Origin: Dehalococcoidia bacterium | GTDB lineage: Bacteria > Chloroflexota > Dehalococcoidia > SHYB01 | Assembly (NCBI GenBank): GCA_965248515.1 | Contig: CBDFJU010000002.1 | Span: 767,688-831,687, forward strand | DNA: 64,000 nucleotides | Reading direction: 5' to 3' | Notes under the pieces: model-generated | Databases searched by the model: none | Told to the model about the DNA's origin: nothing | What the model saw: only the letters and a program-made list of their open reading frames with translations | Shown: piece after piece, positions 41,001 through 51,387 of the stretch | Numbering within the stretch: the first letter of the stretch is position 1 | Layout: the number at the start of each line of letters is the position of its first letter | Made by a program: the position numbers and the translations under genes

Positions 41001-41231
41001 GTCGTTATTGACGGCGGTCTCGAGTGCAGCCGCAACGGCAAGCCCCTCCCTTGCGAACGCGCTCTCACGGCGCTCGTAGTCCAGCCTTTGATAAAGGAGG
41101 AACGCGCCGACTGAAAGAAGCCCGCCGGCTAGCACGGCCAGCACCACCGGAAGGGTTGAACGGGGCGTCCAGTCCCCGCTGCCGCGCTTCCGACGGGCCC
41201 GCTCGCTAGGCGGCTTTGACGGCTGTCCCAC
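38004..41231 (-). CDS. CHASE-PAS hybrid sensor histidine kinase with two receiver domains; in-frame TAG at 40067-40065
   Basis: TM-CHASE-TM (ORF 40065..41297) reads in frame through SM*VENTERRR into ORF 38004..39998 (PAS, SHEIRTPMNG H-box, DTGIG, GGTGLGL, two REC domains); start uncertain. Confidence 0.82.
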
Positions 41232-43320
41232 GGTCGCCCACGATGCCGTCTGCGATACTCTTGATACGCGTTGGACTCGGCCCTTCCGTCCGACCACCTC
41301 GCGTCACGACCTGTACCAGGCTTGGCACGTCGACGATCAGGACAACTTGCCCATCGCCCAGAACGCTCGCCCCCGACAGGCCTTTGATCTCTCCGATATA
41401 TGCTCCCATCGACTTGGCGACGACTTCCTGCTGCACCCGGACCCCATCCACGACGAGTCCCAGAGAGCGCTCGCCCGAGCGCACCACCACGACATAGCCC
41501 TTCCCTGAGTCGTCGGATCTGGCTCCCTGGCCCAGCCCGAAGGCGTCACTCAGTCTGACGAGGGGGATGATGGCGTCTCGAAGGCGCATGACCTCTCGTC
41601 CTCCCATCGTATGAATCTGGGCAGGGTCGGGCGAGACCGTCTCCAGAATGTGGACCAGTGGAATCGCGTAGACGGTCGGCCCGATTGAAACCAGGAGCGC
41701 CTGAACGGTCGCCAGGGTTAACGGCAACCGGAGCGTGAAGGTTGTCCCCTCCCCAGGCCGAGAGCTCACCAGGACCAGGCCGTTGATGGCCTCGATGTTC
41801 GTCTTCACGATGTCCATGCCGACCCCGCGGCCGGAGACGTCCGTGGTCTTCTTGGCCGTGGTGTAGCCGGGAAGGAAGATCAGGTCCATTGTCTCGGCCT
41901 CGTTGAGCCGAGCAGCCGCCTCCCGGGACAGGAGTCCCTTCTTGACGCCCGCGTCGCGCAGCGCCTCGGGATCGATACCCTTGCCGTCGTCCTCGATCGA
42001 GATGACGATGTGGCTCTGCTCGTGGTACGCGTCGAGCGTGATTCGGGCGGCCTCCGGCTTCCCAGCGCTCTTCCGCTGCTGGGCCGATTCGACCCCGTGG
42101 TCCAACGCATTGCGCAGCAGATGGACGACGGGGTCGCGGATATGCTCGATCACACTGCGATCAATCTCGGTGTCCTGTCCCTTGACCTGAAAGTCGAGCT
42201 TCTTTTTCATCTTCTGGGCGAGGTCCCGCATCATCCGGGGGAAGCTGTTGAACACCGTCCCGATGGGGAGCATGCGGACCTTCATGATGTCTTCCTGGAG
42301 CTCGTCGACGACCTTCGCGATGTGGGTAGTCGTCTTGCCCAGGGCTTCCAGCAGATCGTCGTCCTGGTAACGAGACTCGAGCATCTTCGCGACCTGAAGC
42401 AGCCGGGTGCGGTCGATCACGAGCTCGCCGATGACGTTCATCAGGCTGTCGAGCCGCTCGACGTCGATTCGCATGGTCTGCGAAAGGGCGGCCGACCGCT
42501 TGGGTGCGTTGTCGCCGCCGGTCGGCGGGCCTTCCTTCCGCTCTGGAGGGCCGTCGTTGGACCGCTCATAGGGCGACACCGCAATCCCGGCAATGTCCGG
42601 GACCTCTTCCACGCTGGCGCTGAGGGCCGCCGGCTCCGCCGACGTTGCCAGGACGACCTCCAGCCTGGTGTCCGTGACCTCGGCGCGGTCGATGAGCTCC
42701 AGCGACGGGTTGCTCGCGATGATCTCGCCCAGTCCCCGCAGCTCTTCGATGATCTGATAGCAGCGCACGACAGCCCACTCTGTCGTCTGTTCCAGCTCGA
42801 TGCGGATATGCTGCACTGTCTTTCCGCCCGCCTGGGCCACGACGACCCGGCCTTCCGCTGCTTCGTCGAGCACCAGTCCGCGCTCCGCCGAGCCGGGGTG
42901 CTCCGAGCTGGGGCGGACGCCGTCTTGCTCCGCCACGGCCGCCTTGAGGGCCTCCAGGGCGCCCTCGACGGCGACGGGGTCCCCGTCGGGTTGGCTCAGG
43001 GCGTCTGTGAGCGCTCTGAGGACGTCGAGGCAGCCCAGAAGAGCGTCGATCGCCTGGGTCGTCGCTTTCAGATCGCCACGCCTCACGCGGTCGAGAAGGC
43101 TCTCCATCGCGTGGGCCAGCTCGGCCATCGCGGTGTAGCCGAGCATCGCCGACGACCCCTTCAGCGTGTGGGCCGCCCGGAATATCTCCTGGATGACCTC
43201 GGCATCCTCTCCCCCGCGCTCCAACTTGAGGATGGACTCATCGAGCAACTGGAGATGCTCTTCAGCCTCCTGCAAGAAGACGATCAAGTCGTCGGGTGTG
43301 ATGTCGGGGGCAAGCTCCAT
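41206..43320 (-). CDS. cheA: Chemotaxis histidine kinase CheA
   Basis: IFRAAHTLKGSS HPt, RIDVERLD, HLLRNALDHG, DVSGRGVGMD, C-terminal CheW-like domain. Confidence 0.95.
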   Translation of the reverse strand: MELAPDITPDDLIVFLQEAEEHLQLLDESILKLERGGEDAEVIQEIFRAAHTLKGSSAMLGYTAMAELAHAMESLLDRVRRGDLKATTQAIDALLGCLDVLRALTDALSQPDGDPVAVEGALEALKAAVAEQDGVRPSSEHPGSAERGLVLDEAAEGRVVVAQAGGKTVQHIRIELEQTTEWAVVRCYQIIEELRGLGEIIASNPSLELIDRAEVTDTRLEVVLATSAEPAALSASVEEVPDIAGIAVSPYERSNDGPPERKEGPPTGGDNAPKRSAALSQTMRIDVERLDSLMNVIGELVIDRTRLLQVAKMLESRYQDDDLLEALGKTTTHIAKVVDELQEDIMKVRMLPIGTVFNSFPRMMRDLAQKMKKKLDFQVKGQDTEIDRSVIEHIRDPVVHLLRNALDHGVESAQQRKSAGKPEAARITLDAYHEQSHIVISIEDDGKGIDPEALRDAGVKKGLLSREAAARLNEAETMDLIFLPGYTTAKKTTDVSGRGVGMDIVKTNIEAINGLVLVSSRPGEGTTFTLRLPLTLATVQALLVSIGPTVYAIPLVHILETVSPDPAQIHTMGGREVMRLRDAIIPLVRLSDAFGLGQGARSDDSGKGYVVVVRSGERSLGLVVDGVRVQQEVVAKSMGAYIGEIKGLSGASVLGDGQVVLIVDVPSLVQVVTRGGRTEGPSPTRIKSIADGIVGDRGTAVKAA

Positions 43321-43363: not shown

Positions 43364-43867
43364 TCAGGCGGCCGCGGCGCCGACGAGGGTGGTGATGCTG
43401 TCCTGCTGCGACCCAGAGAGCACTCGTTCCAGATCGAGCAGGATGATCATCCTCCCTTCGAGTTTCGCGATCCCGATCAGATACTCCGAGTCCTCGTTCG
43501 TAATCACGAGCGAAGGCGGCTCGATTGAATCCTCCGAGATGCGCATCACCTCGTTGACGGCGTCGACGATCATGCCGATGCTCTGGCTCGCGATGTCGAC
43601 GACGACGATACGGTTGTCCTTGCTAACCTCGCCGTGCTCCAGACCAAATCGCTTTCGCAGATCGACAACCGGAATCACCTTCCCCCGGATATTGATCACT
43701 CCCTCGACGAAGTTCGCCGTCTCGGGTACGCCGGTGATCTCCTCCATCCTGATGATCTCGAGTACGGCGTTGATGTCGACGCCGTAGGCCTCGCCGGCCA
43801 GATCGAAGACCACGATCTGCTGCTCCTGGCTTTCACTCTGCTGCTGGGTCTGTCCCTTTTCGCCCAT
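43364..43867 (-). CDS. cheW: Chemotaxis adaptor CheW
   Basis: AAGGAGG RBS and ATG 43867; VVFDLAGEAYGVDI, GVINIRGKVIPVVDLRKRF, GMIVDAV. Confidence 0.95.
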   Translation of the reverse strand: MGEKGQTQQQSESQEQQIVVFDLAGEAYGVDINAVLEIIRMEEITGVPETANFVEGVINIRGKVIPVVDLRKRFGLEHGEVSKDNRIVVVDIASQSIGMIVDAVNEVMRISEDSIEPPSLVITNEDSEYLIGIAKLEGRMIILLDLERVLSGSQQDSITTLVGAAAA

Positions 43868-44053
43868 GGGGCACCTGCCTCCTTGCCGCTGTTTTGAGGA
43901 AGAACGCGACACTTTCAAACCTATCCGCTATCGGTCGCGCCGGTAATGGCAGAACTCCTCATTTCGTTTGGGGGACGCCGGTCGGTAACCATGGTGGAAA
44001 AGCCGCTTCAAGGGGCTGAGGGGCTTCACGCACGAATGAATGGAATGCGATGG

Positions 44054-44080
44054 GTATCGATGAAGCCACCAGACACTGAA
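44054..44080 (-). promoter_or_regulatory. Putative sigma28-like promoter upstream of cheW; overlaps a TTC PAM plus spacer-seed match
   Basis: Minus strand TTCAGTGT-N11-ATCGATAC versus consensus TAAAGTTT-N11-GCCGATAA (5/8 and 5/8). Confidence 0.35.
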
Positions 44081-44170
44081 TAATTCCCGCTCACCCTTGG
44101 GTGGCGTGGGTACCAGCATCTCGCGACCAACTGGGGGTGGGCATGCCGCTGGAGGTCGCGTGGCTTGGTC

Positions 44171-44263
44171 GGAAGGACTCCAGGGGCCTTCCTGGTATCA
44201 CCGGCCACTAAGAGACAACACACTGTTTCAATCCTCGACCCTCTTTCGACGAAGGTCGCAGAT
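44171..44263 (-). CRISPR. Mini-array: one type I-C-like repeat, a 32-nt spacer and a terminal hairpin (possible degenerate repeat)
   Basis: Minus strand ATCTGCGACCTTCGTCGAAAGAGGGTCGAGGATTGAAAC (44263-44225): 8-bp stem followed by an 11-nt AGGATTGAAAC handle; spacer AGTGTGTTGTCTCTTAGTGGCCGGTGATACCA (44224-44193); hairpin GGAAGG-N10-CCTTCC (44192-44171). Confidence 0.75.
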
Positions 44264-44281
44264 CCGGCGGGCAGCCGCCGG
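44264..44281. repeat. GC hairpin between the cas7 stop and the CRISPR repeat
   Basis: CCGGCGG-GCAG-CCGCCGG. Confidence 0.6.
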
Positions 44282-44288
44282 GCGAAGC

Positions 44289-45181
44289 CTATCCAACGAG
44301 ACGAGCGAGCGAGATGCCGGGTGGAAGCGCTCGGTCGTCGACGGTCACCTCGTAGTCCTGAAAGCGACGCGGTGTCGGCGCCCGCAACCTCGCGGTCACA
44401 AGCTCGACAAGCGTATAGGCGGGAGCGTCACCAGCCTTGGCGCTGTGCGTGAACACGTAGAGCCCGCGGCAGGTCATGGTCCCCCGGTTCACCGACCGGT
44501 CCAGGTCCCAGAGGTTTGTCAGCGCATCCCAGAGCAACGACAGGTCCTCCGCCGATGCCCCGGTGTCGTCGGCAAGGAACGGGTTAAACGCGCCCCTCGT
44601 GACGTAGAGGCCATAGGGCACGACGAACCGCCGCCCCATCTGCCCCGATACGGCTTCCACATCCTCTACCTCCCCGCGGGCGACGTCGTCGGGATTGGTG
44701 AGGGCCACCCGCGTAATGGCGAGGTCGATCGGGTTGATCGGGTCCACCGAGCGGGCGAAGGAGAGCTGAACTGGTCCCCTTACCTGGCCGCAATTCCACT
44801 GCTTCCCCCGGAGCTCGCTCCGGCCCGTGGTCATCACGGCGCCGAACATGCGGACGTCGTAATACAGTTGGCACATCTTCCGCCGTGCGTCGTAATTCAC
44901 CGATGCCGATGGCGGGGCGTTCAGTCGCGCGTAGGCCCTCCTCTGCTCCCGCGCCAGAATGCCGCGATGCTTCACGTAGATGTCCTGGTCGTGGACCCGA
45001 TGAACGTAGTCGCGCACCTTGCGTTTCAGGCACACGTCGGTGACCCACCCGTGCATCGTCTCGGGGTCGACGGGGGCATGTTGCCGGCATCGGGGTCGCC
45101 GTTGGGGTTCCCGTCTGTGACGTCGAACACGAGCACGAAGTCGTGGCGCTTGCTGGGGTCGGTGTGGACGGCATCGGTCAT
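44289..45181 (-). CDS. cas7: Type I-C Cas7 (Csd2); 1-nt frameshift at ~45072-45076
   Basis: RHDFVLVFDVTDGNPNGDPDAGNMP (from ATG 45181) joins VDPET..VTDVCLKRKVRDY, YDVRMFGAVM, GQVRGPVQLSFARS, MGRR..VPYGLY. Confidence 0.92.
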
Positions 45182-45198
45182 GGCACGCTCTTTCTGGC

Positions 45199-46908
45199 CT
45201 AGGCGGCCCGTACGTCTCGTTGCCGGGCTGCGACGTCGGCCGGCGCCACATGCAGCCCGGCCCTCTGGTAGTAGTAGCCGAGGGCGAAGAGGCCTTGTCC
45301 TCGGAGGTCCAGCGATTCTGGGAAGGCGGGGAGCTGGCCCAACAACGCGGACACCTCGCCCTGGAGAGCGGCATGGAGCGGCCGGGTCGCGCGTCGGATC
45401 CGCCCCAGGTGTTCCGTGGCAATGCCGATCAACCGCGGGAAGACGCGAGCGGGGGCGGTGGCGGCGGCGCCGAAGGAGCGCCGTGCCGCCGTGGTCTTTG
45501 CCCCGGGGACGGCCCGGCGATGGACGAGGTCCCACAGCGCGAGGAGTCGTCCACAGAGGTAGGCGTGCTCGCTGCCCATCAGCGCTTCGAAGGCGGGACG
45601 TTCCGCCCGAGTGAGGAGAAGGAGCTTGATCAGGGAAGCGAGGGGAGCCTCCATGAACGTCTGTCCGCCATCGGCGACGGTCCTCCCGAGCGAGGCCCGG
45701 CGCACGGCGAGATGCAGAAGCCACTGGGGCAGCGAATCCCCGGCGAAGGCATTCCTGACAAGCGCCCGCGCAACATTCGGGGAGAGACGCGATCTCTCCG
45801 GCGCGCGGCCCTCGCGGCGGCCGGGCAGGACGAGGCTGCGTTCCAGGGCGTGGGGCGAATACCAGCTCCACCGACCTTCTCGATCTGGTAGCCCCTGTCG
45901 AGCGAAATAGGTGGCGAGGTGTTGCCGGGCGGCAAGCACGGTAGTGTCGATCCAGTCCCGGAGAACGATGCGCCCCCCACTCGGAGAAAAGCAGGCGCCA
46001 TACCAGCGGTCGTCGGTCGCCACGCCGTTGCTTGGCTCCAGCGACAGGGAGCGGACGCCGTACTCGTCGGGATGGGCCAGGAGCCCGAGCAGGTTTCCGG
46101 TAGAGCCCTGGTCCGTAAACGCCACGATGGTCGTCATGGAATCCGGCAACAGCGTGTGGGCTGCGTCGTCACTCAGGAGTGCCGTCAGCGTCTCCGTGTA
46201 CCCCTGGGCGCAGGATTGGCAGACAGGGCTCGTTAGGCCCTGGTTGAGCCCATACGACTGGAAGGCTGGGCTATTGGCCGAGACAAGCGCCATCCCTGCT
46301 GGCTGGCCTCCCGCTATGCCCCGAACAATTGGATGGACGCGGGCGATGGGCGCGCTCTTGCCGCACACGAGGCATTCCCCAACAGGCCCCGAATCGAGCC
46401 GCCGCGCCCACCATACCTGGACCGCCTCCCGGTCCACCACCGGCGACTGACCTTCGACACGGAACGCGCATATGTCGTCGCCGAAGAGATCGCCGGGGAG
46501 CTCGAGTTGGGCCGGATTGAGGGTCTCGAGGAAGCGCTGCACGGCGATGACGGCAGGGTCTCCGGTGTCCCGGGCGCAGGCGTGGACCAGGTCGACGAAG
46601 GCGGCGTGGCCCAGGATCGTCCGGGCCCGGCTTCGGGTGCCAAGCATGGGACTCAGGCGCGCCAGGGCGTGCGCGCCGGAATCGGCCAGCAGCCGCGCCG
46701 CCACGTTGTTTGTAACCCGAACGTACGGGAGCGGCCAGCGGACCCCTACCTTGCGCTCCTGAGGCCCCGTTGCTTCCGACGTTCTGACAACATCGACGAG
46801 CCGGCCGTTGAGATCGAGGTCCAGCCACCAGTGGACCGGCGCGGTGCGATATCCGGGAGGCACCGGGACGCCGATCCTCTCGCGGCACTCGACGAGCGCC
46901 CTAAGCAC
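45199..46908 (-). CDS. cas8c: Type I-C Cas8c (Csd1)
   Basis: GTG 46908 overlapping the cas5 stop; MLRALVE, PPGY, CLVCG..ARVHP, LVSANSPAFQSYG, PVCQSCA, AYLCGRLLA, QGLFALGYYYQR. Confidence 0.9.
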   Translation of the reverse strand: MLRALVECRERIGVPVPPGYRTAPVHWWLDLDLNGRLVDVVRTSEATGPQERKVGVRWPLPYVRVTNNVAARLLADSGAHALARLSPMLGTRSRARTILGHAAFVDLVHACARDTGDPAVIAVQRFLETLNPAQLELPGDLFGDDICAFRVEGQSPVVDREAVQVWWARRLDSGPVGECLVCGKSAPIARVHPIVRGIAGGQPAGMALVSANSPAFQSYGLNQGLTSPVCQSCAQGYTETLTALLSDDAAHTLLPDSMTTIVAFTDQGSTGNLLGLLAHPDEYGVRSLSLEPSNGVATDDRWYGACFSPSGGRIVLRDWIDTTVLAARQHLATYFARQGLPDREGRWSWYSPHALERSLVLPGRREGRAPERSRLSPNVARALVRNAFAGDSLPQWLLHLAVRRASLGRTVADGGQTFMEAPLASLIKLLLLTRAERPAFEALMGSEHAYLCGRLLALWDLVHRRAVPGAKTTAARRSFGAAATAPARVFPRLIGIATEHLGRIRRATRPLHAALQGEVSALLGQLPAFPESLDLRGQGLFALGYYYQRAGLHVAPADVAARQRDVRAA

Positions 46909-47560
46909 GGTGGCGGGCCCCAACCGCCAGGTAAAGGTTTTGTGGGATGCGCATCGCACCGTGCTCGAGCCTTGGGAAGAAGAACCGGGGCAGGGCCGGA
47001 TGGCCGTCCGACCCGTAATCCAGGTCGAACAACATCGGTCCAAGGTCCTCGGATATCGGTTGCGGCCTGTCGCCTTTCCGCGGCAGGCCGAAGAAGGCGG
47101 GGAACTCCCGGCAGCCGAGGTAAGGGGTCTGGAAGCATTGTCCTCGCTGCACGCGGCGACGGAATTGGTCCCGATACCCCGCGGGGTCCAGGTTACTCGC
47201 GTGTGGCTTCAAGACGACGTCCGCGTGCACGATGTACGCGACGTCGCGCAATGCGAGCGTATGACGCTGCGCTCGGTGCTCGTCCGCCAGGAAGTCGGGG
47301 CCCGCCCCCACTCGAAGTGTTGCCTTCTCCGTTACCTCGTTCCGGACCAGGGAAACGAACTGTACCGGGCGCAGGACGAGGATCTCGCGGATCTCCCACG
47401 AGAACTCGGGACGCCAGAAGATCGACTCCAGGGCGCCTCGCGCCGCCGAGGGTGTCATGACCGGGTAGCTCACGCGCTCGACCTTCATCTCGGGCCGGGT
47501 GAAGCAGGCGAACTCGCCCCAAAACCGCGCCACTAACGGGGGATCACTGAACGTCGTCAT
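46901..47560 (-). CDS. cas5: Type I-C Cas5 (Cas5d)
   Basis: GGAGG RBS and ATG 47560; WGEFACFTRPEMKVERVSYPVMTPSAARGALESIFWRP, GQCFQTPYLGCREF, DLGPMLFD. Confidence 0.95.
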   Translation of the reverse strand: MTTFSDPPLVARFWGEFACFTRPEMKVERVSYPVMTPSAARGALESIFWRPEFSWEIREILVLRPVQFVSLVRNEVTEKATLRVGAGPDFLADEHRAQRHTLALRDVAYIVHADVVLKPHASNLDPAGYRDQFRRRVQRGQCFQTPYLGCREFPAFFGLPRKGDRPQPISEDLGPMLFDLDYGSDGHPALPRFFFPRLEHGAMRIPQNLYLAVGARHRA

Positions 47561-47610
47561 CGACCATCCTCCACGCATGCGGACAGACTGCCGCTGGGTC
47601 CGCTACTTGA

Positions 47611-47640
47611 ATGGTAGGGTCGACTACACTGAAGTGACAA
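47611..47640 (-). promoter_or_regulatory. Predicted sigma70 promoter of the cas operon
   Basis: TTGTCA-N18-TACCAT on the minus strand ~50 nt upstream of cas5; the inter-hexamer region contains TTC-AGTGT. Confidence 0.55.
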
Positions 47641-47716
47641 AGCCTGCTCCCTTCGGATGCCTACGAAGGGACAGGGTCGCGCCCAGTGAGCAGGTCCTCG
47701 AAAGGAGTCGAGGGGT

Positions 47717-48409
47717 TTAGGACTGGGGGGTAGCCGGGGTGGGGACGGCTTTCCACGTCGCCAGCTCGCGGACGCCGTCGACTCGCCAGGAGAGGTTCCC
47801 GTTCGTGACCAGCTGGAGCTCGTTCTGGATGTGCTGGTTGCCGGGCAGGACGATCTCGACGATGGCCGACGCGGTGTGGCAGCCGATCGACGGGGCGCGC
47901 AGGCTCACCAGATCGAGGCCTTTCCCGAGGTCCCGGGACGCCTCGGGGTAGAACGACTCAGTGGTGACACGGCGAAGGCCATCGATGTTGCTCTCGCGCA
48001 GGAAGCGGAGGTACTCCCTGACAGCGCTCTCCACAACCTCTCGCCGCTGAATCACCTGGCTTGCCGCGCCGCCGATGCCGCCGAGGTTCGACGAGCCGCT
48101 GGAGATGGCCACGCGGCCCTCGACGAGAAGCGAGAAGCCCCGGGCGCCGCCGTCCACGGTGCAGATCACGCTATGGCCGCGCCGCTCCAGCTCGTCGCGT
48201 AGGGCCAACGCAACGTCAAGGGCCGTCTGCCCTGCGGAGACCGGCACCTCGATCTTGGAAGGGGCCGAGAGGACGAGGGTGCCGTCCGCCGTCGCCGAGC
48301 CCTGCAGGCTTACCTCGTAGATGTCGGCGACCTGCTTGGTGTCTCCGTCGTTGGCGCAGGCAGCCACCAGAATTAGGGTGAGGACGGCCAGACTCAGGAG
48401 ACGACGCAT
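47717..48409 (-). CDS. Hypothetical lipoprotein
   Basis: GGAGG RBS; signal peptide MRRLLSLAVLTLILVAAC with lipobox. Confidence 0.7.
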   Translation of the reverse strand: MRRLLSLAVLTLILVAACANDGDTKQVADIYEVSLQGSATADGTLVLSAPSKIEVPVSAGQTALDVALALRDELERRGHSVICTVDGGARGFSLLVEGRVAISSGSSNLGGIGGAASQVIQRREVVESAVREYLRFLRESNIDGLRRVTTESFYPEASRDLGKGLDLVSLRAPSIGCHTASAIVEIVLPGNQHIQNELQLVTNGNLSWRVDGVRELATWKAVPTPATPQS

Positions 48410-50109: not shown

Positions 50110-50487
50110 GTGGACTGTAACGAGGTCCCGCCCCCGGCGTTCCGGCAGGGCATCGATGAGTTCAACCAGGGGGCCTACTTCGACGCCCACGAGACGTTGG
50201 AGACCCTGTGGAAAGCGGAGTCCGGGCCTGTCCGCAACCTGCTCCAGGGCGTTATTCAACTGGCCACCGGAATGCACCACGTCCGCGGCGGGAACCGGAA
50301 GGGCGCGCTGGCACTGGTGGAGCGCGCGGTCGCGAAGCTCGAGCCGTACCAGGTCTGCCTCGGCATTGACGTTGCGGCGTTGCGGGACGACGCGGGTCGC
50401 GTGGTAGCCCGGCTGCGCGAGCTCGGGCCCGGTGAACTCGACGCCTTCCCGTGGAGCGAGGCGCCTCGCGTCAAGCTAGCGGACTAG
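50110..50487 (+). CDS. DUF309 family protein
   Basis: FNQGAYFDAHETLETLW, LQGVIQLATGMHH, GNRKGA. Confidence 0.88.
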   Translation: MDCNEVPPPAFRQGIDEFNQGAYFDAHETLETLWKAESGPVRNLLQGVIQLATGMHHVRGGNRKGALALVERAVAKLEPYQVCLGIDVAALRDDAGRVVARLRELGPGELDAFPWSEAPRVKLAD

Positions 50488-51387
50488 AGGAGCGCCATCG
50501 CGGCTACGCCGAGGGTGACGCAGAGGGCTGAGGCGGCTTTCGTTACCAGGGCTGGTCGAGAAGCGCGCTCTGTCACTAGCTTGGGGATGAACGTGGCGAT
50601 GACCGTGGCGTACGCGAGGACAATTACCGGCCTCGACGCCATAATCGCTGAAGACAGCGAGACGGGGCCCAGGCTAAACGCGATGAAGCTGGTCATGAAG
50701 GCGATGAGCAACGTGACGTGGGCCAAGGCCGTCACGCCCATCGCTTTGGGCGCTTTGAGCATCGCGCCGATCGTCCGCCACGCGCCGAAGCCCTGGGCGG
50801 CCACCGTGAACCCCGCCGCGGCCCCGACACTGGACAGGGCATAGAGCTGCCACACGGAGAGGTGCCCCAGGGCGTACTTGGCGACGGCGCTGTAGACCGC
50901 GATCCCGAAGCTGGCAATGAGTAACAGCGCGAAGGGCCGCCGCAGCTTCACGGGATCGCCGGGCAGCGCGTGATGCCACGAGGCGATGACGGCCGCCCAC
51001 GATGACGAGCCCAATGGCGAGCCATTTGATCGGGTTCAGCACCTCGCCAAGGAACAGCACGGCAAGTATGGCAACGAAGATTGGGTGGGTGTCGAGGACC
51101 GGCACGACCCTGGTCACTTCGTCCTCGGACTGGATGACCCGGTAGATCAACAGCGAGAAGCCGGCGTAGAGCGCGCCGACGCCGACCATGGCGAAAACGG
51201 GGCCGCTCATCCACGACGACGGAGCGTCGATAATGAAGATAGGGACGGATATCACGAGATGGAAGATGCCGCCCCAGAAGGCGAACCCGAAGATGCTCCG
51301 AACATGACGCACGAAGGCGTACTTCTGCAAGATCGCGTACGCAGAGAACGATACGGCACTGATCAGCGACAGTGCGATCCAGTCCAC
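50484..51387 (-). CDS. EamA/DMT-family transporter, frameshift near 50997
   Basis: ORF 50674..51387 (LFLGEVLN..WLAIGLVIVG) joins ORF 50484..51014; multi-TM. Confidence 0.8.

Follow-up and report, generated by a model that had tools for sequence, protein, structure and literature searches.

Cascade complexes without Cas3 are known mainly from transposons, in CRISPR-associated transposons (CASTs; CRISPR, short palindromic repeats that are clustered and regularly interspaced), or in combination with replacement nucleases, and Cas12m-type silencing is CRISPR interference by DNA binding alone. Here we describe a locus in a 64,000-nucleotide (nt) stretch of a Dehalococcoidia genome (the window, G000:C2:767688-831687, with G000 being the genome under study) that carries three type I-C Cascade genes, cas5c, cas8c and cas7, and a single CRISPR RNA (crRNA)-like element, with all features of this module on the minus strand. 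The core of its guide, like that of a second such module in another genus, is identical to the outermost 15 base pairs (bp) of the inverted repeats of IS630-family insertion sequences (ISs).

The canonical type I-C systems (Desulfovibrio vulgaris and Neisseria lactamica types; Cascade structures 7kha, 8dej and 8g9t) share with this locus Cas5c, a Cas8c with a Cas11c-like C-terminus and Cas7, as well as a repeat hairpin followed by the 11-nt handle that Cas5c would leave. Unlike these systems, the module has no cas3, cas4, cas1, cas2, leader or array, its one repeat is followed by a fixed guide of which about 15 nt are conserved, and its cas7 is broken. With its single degenerate repeat next to the effector genes, the locus resembles CreA (of CreTA), CreR and regulatory mini-arrays (PMC9458426, PMC8501985, bioRxiv 10.1101/2023.03.10.532045, PMC10120712), and the short effective guide and the use of Cascade as a binder would be further features in common. 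CreA and CreR elements lie inside complete, immune-competent loci, match a nearby promoter and repress toxins or cas promoters (PMC9458426, PMC8501985, bioRxiv 10.1101/2023.03.10.532045), and complete I-C loci often contain mini-arrays and stand-alone repeats (PMC10120712, Table 1). The module described here, in contrast, stands without the rest of the system, and its guide matches a transposon end and no local promoter convincingly.

The loss of Cas3 and of adaptation, the retention of Cascade and the link to a transposon draw a parallel to CASTs. The differences are that the module has no Cas8-Cas5 fusion, that the guide matches the transposon's own end and not an attachment site, and that the transposon family is IS630 and not Tn7 or Mu; furthermore, a Pfam scan of the 10 open reading frames (ORFs) within ~6 kb detected no transposase, TniQ or HNH domain (a dedicated search for Tn7 genes was not made), and no pair of inverted transposon ends was seen around the module. 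Together with the absence of DDE_3 domains from the genome, this agrees with the initial impression that the locus is not CAST-like. Type IV-A systems with CasDinG resemble the proposed mode of action, RNA-guided DNA binding without target destruction, which their description terms "transcriptional repression" (PMC12714560). Such binding-only interference systems have a different type of effector and keep arrays and usually adaptation, whereas the module has a single inherited guide. The nearest description to this layout that was found is a single "incomplete type I-C" locus noted previously as a possible DNA binder. No description of the layout itself was found by title or abstract outside subscription journals, and no published link between IS630 ends and a Cascade guide was found in a coverage that excluded subscription journals and supplements.

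Our preferred reading, which we hold with moderate confidence and which derives from sequence comparison, is that the locus represents a rare I-C derivative that would have retained only the DNA-binding part of the system, would be hard-wired to the ends of IS630 elements and of miniature inverted-repeat transposable elements (MITEs), and would now be decaying in G000. The element on which this reading centers lies downstream of cas7 and has three parts:

44265..44225, minus strand, single degenerate type I-C repeat, beginning 23 nt after the cas7 stop
44224..44210, minus strand, conserved 15-nt guide AGTGTGTTGTCTCTT, which fits the IS630-family terminal core AGTGTNNTGTCNCT
44192..44171, minus strand, hairpin GGAAGG-N10-CCTTCC (6 bp), after the guide

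The repeat is composed of an 8-bp stem (CGACCTTC/GAGGGTCG) and the 11-nt 5′ handle AGGATTGAAAC (44235..44225). Although its score against the Rfam family CRISPR-DR9 is low (17.9 bits, below the gathering score of 45), all 37/37 model positions are aligned. Real I-C arrays of G022 and G063 (same class) and of G001 (same family) consist of 37-nt repeats that end in exactly the 12 nt, GAGGATTGAAAC, with which the element closes. No second copy of the repeat is present in the G000 genome at up to 8 mismatches. Another AGGATTGAAAC in this genome (C4:921317) follows a PHP-domain gene, lacks the repeat structure and was dismissed as a chance 11-mer. A first-pass annotation, made from the letters of the window, had described one repeat 25 nt after the cas7 stop without an AT-rich leader, then a 32-nt spacer and a hairpin. 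The leader is indeed absent and the hairpin is in place; the repeat is single, but degenerate and 23 nt past the stop. The guide is also there, but its length of 32 nt, which would extend the nominal spacer to 44193, is an assumption, and conservation is limited to the first 15 nt.

This conservation emerges from a comparison with G006, a genome of another genus in the same family, in which a contig of 6346 bp (L019, G006:C70) carries the same three genes (cas5 68%, cas8c 45% and an intact cas7 69% identical to those of G000). After the G006 cas7 stop, a strong hairpin ends exactly at AGGATTGAAAC and is followed by AGTGTGATGTCCCTC and then by an 18-bp hairpin. In both genomes the stem ends exactly at the handle despite differing stem sequences, and in the alignment of the two intergenic regions GAGGATTGAAAC is 12/12 identical and the next 15 nt are 13/15 identical, with the remainder barely alignable. 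The predicted RNA fold of the G006 element is unusual (z −5.22), and that of the G000 element is unremarkable (z −1.41). Among the 401 genomes of the class, the pattern AGGATTGAAACAGTGTGWTGTC occurs exactly only in G000 and G006. With 3 mismatches it is found in three further genomes, one of the matches being a spacer of an ordinary array and another being in G247, on which nothing rests; a related handle-plus-guide pattern was found in G000 alone among 301 genomes of the phylum. Finding this layout together with its guide in a second genus speaks for a module that was exapted and kept by selection, and bears out the first-pass proposal of a Cascade-only I-C derivative with one fixed guide. 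The surroundings of the two modules, however, are unrelated: upstream of the G006 module, a LuxR-type response-regulator gene ends and is followed by a terminator and 330 nt of spacer, and a PAS histidine-kinase gene forms the downstream boundary. Conservation extends to the three-gene, single-repeat layout and the guide, but not to the chemotaxis (che) neighborhood found in G000. The placement of the G006 module looks like an insertion into a two-component operon.

The identity of the sequence matched by the guide comes from a search of G006 with AGTGTNWTGTCNCT (≤1 mismatch), which returned, besides the guide itself, two inverted sites 900 bp apart on contig C125. These sites are the ends of a 919-bp element (G006:C125:3715-4633) that is flanked by CTAG and encodes HTH_32 and DDE_3 (IS630/Tc1-type) domains in two frames. 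Following the flanking CT, the two ends read AGTGTCATGTCACTC and AGTGTCGTGTCACTC, compared with AGTGTGATGTCCCTC in the G006 guide. In 61 relatives, CTAGTGTNNTGTCNCT has 27 matches, distributed over 8 genomes, versus 2 for the reversed control. The matches number up to 10 copies per genome, many of them at contig ends; their outer flanks vary between copies, their inner sequences form subfamilies, and some are arranged as inverted pairs 143–400 bp apart, which we read as MITEs. MITE-like and IS630-like elements that sit in CTAG sites and terminate with TAGTGTNNTGTCNCT are found in G003, G008, G023, G026, G048, G049 and G051 (L061-L087). The guide is in register with these ends such that its base 1 corresponds to the A of the TA duplication. 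A separate G006 site, TTCAGCGTCATGTCTCTC at C73:17610 with 1 mismatch, was discarded as a chance occurrence; it coincides with the start codon and ribosome-binding site of a dehydrogenase-like gene that runs on the opposite strand.

G000 itself contains neither IS630-type ends (0 found) nor a DDE_3 gene anywhere in its genome. No 32-nt match to the guide with ≤10 mismatches exceeds the chance level there, and none of the 14-nt matches with ≤2 mismatches is flanked by TTC. Viral protospacers gave 0 matches in two scans of viral contigs in which every sixth guide base was left free.

The protein-coding part of the module consists of the following features:

47560..46901, minus strand, cas5c (Cas5d family), intact, 219 amino acids; TIGR01876 144.4 bits (cut-off 85), PF09704
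46908..45199, minus strand, cas8c (Csd1), intact, 569 amino acids, GTG start; TIGR01863 252.6 bits (cut-off 218.65), PF09709 297 bits
45181..44289, minus strand, cas7 (Csd2) as a whole, in two frames
45181..45074, minus strand, N-terminal piece of cas7, MTDAVH...GNPNGDPDAGNMP, frame A
45071..44289, minus strand, C-terminal piece of cas7, VDPETMHGW... to the stop, frame B; TIGR02589 228.7 bits, no further defect
45072-45076, G-run on the plus strand, cas7 frameshift; the Arg codon of NMP-R-VDPET lacks one base (1-nt deletion)

Cas5c matches the solved I-C Cas5 chain 8g9t_N over its full length (E 1.2e-45), and the start of cas8c overlaps the end of cas5c by 8 nt. Because the C-terminus of Cas8c (residues 447-553, within the last ~120 residues) aligns to separately solved Cas11c chains, an internal small-subunit (Cas11c) product is likely to be made from cas8c. 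All three genes are of type I-C, in agreement with the initial description of three coupled Cascade genes, but not all of them are intact. In four intact close Cas7 homologues the alignment reads DPDA(E/D)NMPR(C/F)DPET, whereas the window encodes DPDAGNMP, two stray bases and VDPET; the Arg that is missing here between NMP and (C/F/V)DPET is present in all four, and both parts of cas7 share one frame in 5/5 relatives carrying the gene. The region 43900-47700 is covered in a single piece by Logan contigs from 4/4 sequencing runs with 0 differences and 0 gaps, where the four runs stem from one sample of one study, possibly the source of the assembly, and include no independent sample. The deletion is found in the contigs of all four runs and is therefore not an artefact of this assembly, and the cas7 copy, with its frameshift reproduced in this way, is probably no longer functional. 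A programmed frameshift could still be at work, although the site, by reading of the letters, has no canonical slippery sequence. In one run (X4), a 31-letter contig of depth 6 adjoins the frameshift (45080-45109) without spanning it; its end differs in one letter, which may point to a minor variant.

Relatives of Cas8c are sparse. They were found in 7/41 sampled relatives, including G000, and in 2/14 other genomes of the family. The distant ones belong to canonical loci: identity is 31–41% for G025, G022 and G016 (two comparisons) and 34–38% for G001. In G025, G022 and G016, cas3 lies upstream of cas5 (the locus-side copy in G022 scores 98 bits, just below the cut-off of 102), cas1 is found beside the locus in G022, G016 and G001, and long arrays follow in G022 and G001, the latter being a family member with cas1 and an array of 50 repeats. 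Among 5.8 billion proteins, the only close Cas8c relatives were P0002 (77%) and P0003 (45%), with the next best at ≤39%. P0003 is 99% identical to the G006 Cas8c and represents a cluster of 21 sequences, two members of which differ at 6/566 residues; in the Cas8c tree, G000, P0002 and P0003 group together as a clade with values of 100/100, and its stem is long (0.79). A class-wide search with G006 Cas7 found 8/401 genomes at E ≤ 1e-95, with G000 at 67% identity and the rest at 56–58%, and the Cas7 homologues P0020, P0021 and P0023 show 67–70%; no Cas7 partner near the 77% identity of P0002 was among the matches listed. With P0002 as query, G000 was the only genome of the phylum to exceed 41%, a search of genome contigs for further members of the group gave only 7 distant loci (23–27% identity), and a scan of metagenomes with the DNA pattern gave 0 matches. 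Scans with the Cas8c alignment confirmed 0/111 candidate stretches in metagenomes and 0/49 in viral sequences.

The divergence of the Cas proteins between G000 and G006 is compatible with long residence in these lineages, given that the housekeeping protein TldD is ~75% identical within the family (G000 versus G001 and G002) and that CheA is 58% identical over its C-terminal part to its G006 counterpart (G006:C18:35532-37721). The family members G001 and G002 have no cheA homologue at E ≤ 1e-40, and motility genes missing from the others may be common to the two genomes with a module.

We propose the following model for the function of such a module. The retained parts would be cas5c, cas8c (probably with internal Cas11c), cas7 and one crRNA-like gene, in which a hairpin-forming repeat with its 11-nt handle AGGAUUGAAAC precedes a fixed ~15-nt guide and the terminal hairpin. 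As there is no leader, the guide RNA would be made by read-through from the cas promoter, and Cas5c would cut it where the stem of the repeat closes, so that the 11-nt handle remains. A single-guide Cascade would then form and bind IS630 and MITE ends without cutting, most likely hindering the transposase or its expression. Chromosomal targets of this kind would be tolerable only because Cas3 is absent, and a self-targeting guide against a resident transposon would, in turn, select for the loss of Cas3. In G000 the module is probably dead or dying: its cas7 carries a 1-nt deletion, and both IS630-type transposases and matching element ends are missing from the genome. The loss of the target family and a fresh frameshift fit relaxed selection on a broken copy, a comparison that rests on two genomes.

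A stronger version of this model would be that the module is a domesticated, nuclease-free I-C Cascade with a single inherited guide against IS630/MITE ends, serving as RNA-guided, germline-encoded transposon silencing or sensing, and that it is kept across genera as the loss of Cas3 makes self-targeting harmless and decays once the transposon family is gone. We advance it tentatively, as a possibility suggested by the genomic comparison. If a Cascade with one inherited transposon-end guide were indeed all that is kept across genera, it would constitute a natural form of CRISPR interference (CRISPRi) aimed at transposable elements and a compact DNA binder of three genes and one RNA, possibly with an altered protospacer-adjacent motif (PAM). 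The G006 module and the IS630 element of the same genome form a concrete, testable pair, and G000 would illustrate a route by which such a module dies: loss of the target and then a frameshift.

Several observations weigh against a module that binds transposon ends. The main one concerns the PAM. The I-C PAM is TTC, and the integrated IS end is preceded by N-C-T (TTT in three G023 copies). This flank results from the TA duplication in a CTAG target, in which a C at position −1 is impossible in this register, and binding would therefore need a changed PAM preference. In D. vulgaris, Cas8c reads TTC via N72 and Q212 (bioRxiv 10.1101/2022.06.15.496202); the equivalent of Asn72 is kept as N68 in the Cas8c clade, and that of Gln212 is ambiguous (Q202/P203 in G000, K in G006). 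A consensus scan found no sigma-70-like promoter facing inward at the left end of the IS, which leaves promoter occlusion at that end unsupported. Nor does a guide of 15 nt with a hairpin behind it correspond to a normal I-C crRNA. The search itself contributed to the apparent pairing: the patterns used to find the ISs had N at guide positions 6, 7 and 12, and so the restriction of mismatches between the G006 guide and the IS end to positions 6 and 12 was built in and is not independent evidence. Bases such as those at positions 6 and 12 are flipped out in type I crRNAs, as stated in PMC10120712. An exact match of the pattern in the 2.9-Mb G006 genome is unremarkable on its own (roughly 0.2–0.7 expected), and G003:C6:964968, the one place where position 7 agrees with the G000 guide, lacks a partner end and may be fortuitous. 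Finally, the genomic context covers two genomes, G000 and G006. The weight lies in the location of the matches at both transposon termini and in their recurrence across the element family.

The bounds of the module and its putative promoter, on which some of the alternatives depend, are as follows:

47640..47611, minus strand, upstream of cas5c, sigma-70-like candidate promoter with TTGTCA and TACCAT 18 nt apart
47717..48409, minus strand, lipoprotein gene at the upstream boundary, 230 amino acids, LVAAC lipobox, no Pfam family
43364..43918, minus strand, cheW (by Pfam scan) at the downstream boundary, with cheA and a CHASE-domain gene beyond
41206..43320, cheA, beyond cheW
44058..44083, minus strand, 26-nt motif TTATTCAGTGTCTGGTGGCTTCATCG upstream of cheW, resembling a transposon end

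The scan upstream of cas5c found 1 sigma-70-like site, compared to a mean of 0.5 in shuffled sequence. The first-pass annotation had predicted this promoter as the module's own and had named the same boundaries; the boundaries hold, the promoter is a candidate site, and the interval between the lipoprotein gene and cheW has no room for cas3, cas4, cas1, cas2 or any further cas gene. The G+C content of the module resembles that of the surrounding DNA.

The plainest alternative is that the locus is a remnant without function: a canonical I-C system would have lost cas3 on one side and cas4-cas1-cas2 with the array on the other, and the guide would be the scar of an IS630 or MITE insertion. The frameshift in cas7, seen in the contigs of four runs, is what such decay would look like, as is the patchy occurrence of I-C in the family, where Cas8c is found in 2/14 other genomes, one of which has a canonical system that includes cas1 and an array of 50 repeats. 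What follows the handle is an IS630-type end, IS elements delete adjacent DNA, and stand-alone repeats are reported from 34% of 1206 I-C loci (PMC10120712, Table 1). A remnant is, however, hard to reconcile with a reduced layout that is intact in another genus at 45–69% protein identity, its handle and guide kept amid unalignable non-coding surroundings, or with a distinct Cas8c clade that includes a 21-sequence cluster with members 6/566 residues apart. Furthermore, the similarity of the guide region to five MITEs ends at nt 15, the junction GAAAC/AGTGT is without the T of the TA duplication, and a right-hand element end is missing after the guide in G000 and is weak, with indels, in G006, all of which indicates that the guide is not simply an element lying beside the repeat. 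The signs of a decaying remnant named at the outset, a read-confirmed cas7 frameshift and relatives with a complete locus, are present in part: the frameshift is there in the four-run contigs, but the relatives with complete loci are only distant (31–41% in Cas8c). Considering these points, we judge the remnant explanation rather improbable, while a CreR/CreA-type arrangement, in which a lone crRNA-like RNA would direct Cascade either to the module's own cas promoter, for autorepression, or to that of a small toxin, is more clearly unlikely. In the toxin case the cell would be addicted to the Cascade genes, which would explain the survival of those genes only. The 18-nt spacer of the predicted cas5c promoter does contain TTC+AGTGT, the canonical I-C PAM with the first 5 bases of the guide; the genome contains 28 copies of TTCAGTGT, two of them within the 5.5-kb locus (in the cas5c promoter and upstream of cheW; Poisson P ~8e-4), and in G006 one copy lies 290 nt upstream of cas5. 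In a canonical relative, a comparable mini-guide is located between cas3 and cas5 (L021:12433), and CreA/CreR are degenerate repeats inside cas loci that repress via partial matches near cas promoters, with creA-like elements reported for I-C (bioRxiv 10.1101/2023.03.10.532045; PMC9458426, PMC8501985). The pairing at the promoter, however, consists of the PAM and 5 nt, followed by 4/9 of the next pairing positions, and transposon ends are matched far better. No toxin-like gene was identified, none being recognised by eye in 43920-44170, and a live toxin circuit should be lethal with cas7 broken.

The first-pass annotation had raised possible control of the neighboring chemotaxis operon, with the fixed guide steering Cascade to the region upstream of cheW and cheA. 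Among all TTC-flanked sites of the G000 genome, the best partial match to the guide is indeed located there (44077, 147 nt downstream of the guide; 11/13 pairing positions in the first 15), and in G006 a TTT-flanked 11/13 site downstream of the module precedes an ORF that has, by eye, a chemoreceptor-like N-terminus. The 44077 site, however, has seed mismatches at positions 8 and 11 and is part of the 26-nt motif, which itself resembles an IS630-type end with 2 changes. This motif, TTATTCAKTGTCTGGTGGCTTCAYCG, has two copies in the genome (24/26 identical; the second, at G000:C4:923271-923296, lies upstream of a KaiC-like ATPase gene), each with a second similar block, TGAARCGGSTTTTCC, ~44 nt further. 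It is absent from the other family genomes (0/14) and hence cannot be the target that keeps the guide constant in two genera. The adjacency to cheW and cheA is not conserved, with LuxR-type and PAS kinase genes taking their place in G006, and the guide matches IS630 ends and not a che promoter. A role of the module as a regulator of the neighboring che operon is thus poorly supported, and we consider it very unlikely. Still less probable is a split canonical system, in which cas3, the adaptation genes and arrays would reside in the missing 9% of the genome or on a plasmid. The G000 genome (3.82 Mb, 64% G+C) is 91% complete, and repeats often remain unassembled. The assembly, however, consists of 4 large contigs, and the search of the whole genome suggested at the outset found no rest of a system: the cas3 core profile gave 3 matches, all in long generic helicase frames and none scoring above 43 bits, where the cut-off is 102.45; the cas3 HD domain and cas1 had no match (cas2 and cas4, for which the locus has no room, were not searched separately); a second copy of the repeat is absent, as described above; and no array was found by a k-mer periodicity scan, in which only the largest cluster was inspected and most of the others, with periods that are multiples of three, were read as coding repeats unchecked. 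The same absences recur in G006 (82% complete), which has no cas1 and no cas3 above the cut-off.

Three minor observations were made along the way. The largest cluster of the periodicity scan is a leucine-rich-repeat gene of ~3 kb outside the window (G000:C2:598801-602000), whose nearly identical 72-bp (24-residue) units mimic a CRISPR array in simple periodicity scans. In the canonical I-C locus L021 (G022:C147 ~12433, minus strand), the solitary repeat-like element between cas3 and cas5 carries a short guide, CAGGTCTTGGAAGAGTG, that resembles the sequence just upstream, CAGGTATTGGAAGAGTA, and has the look of a CreR-type mini-guide. Within the window, the EamA transporter family is matched by two overlapping ORFs in different frames (50484..51014 and 50674..51387, together 50484-51387, minus strand), which may represent a second frameshifted gene.

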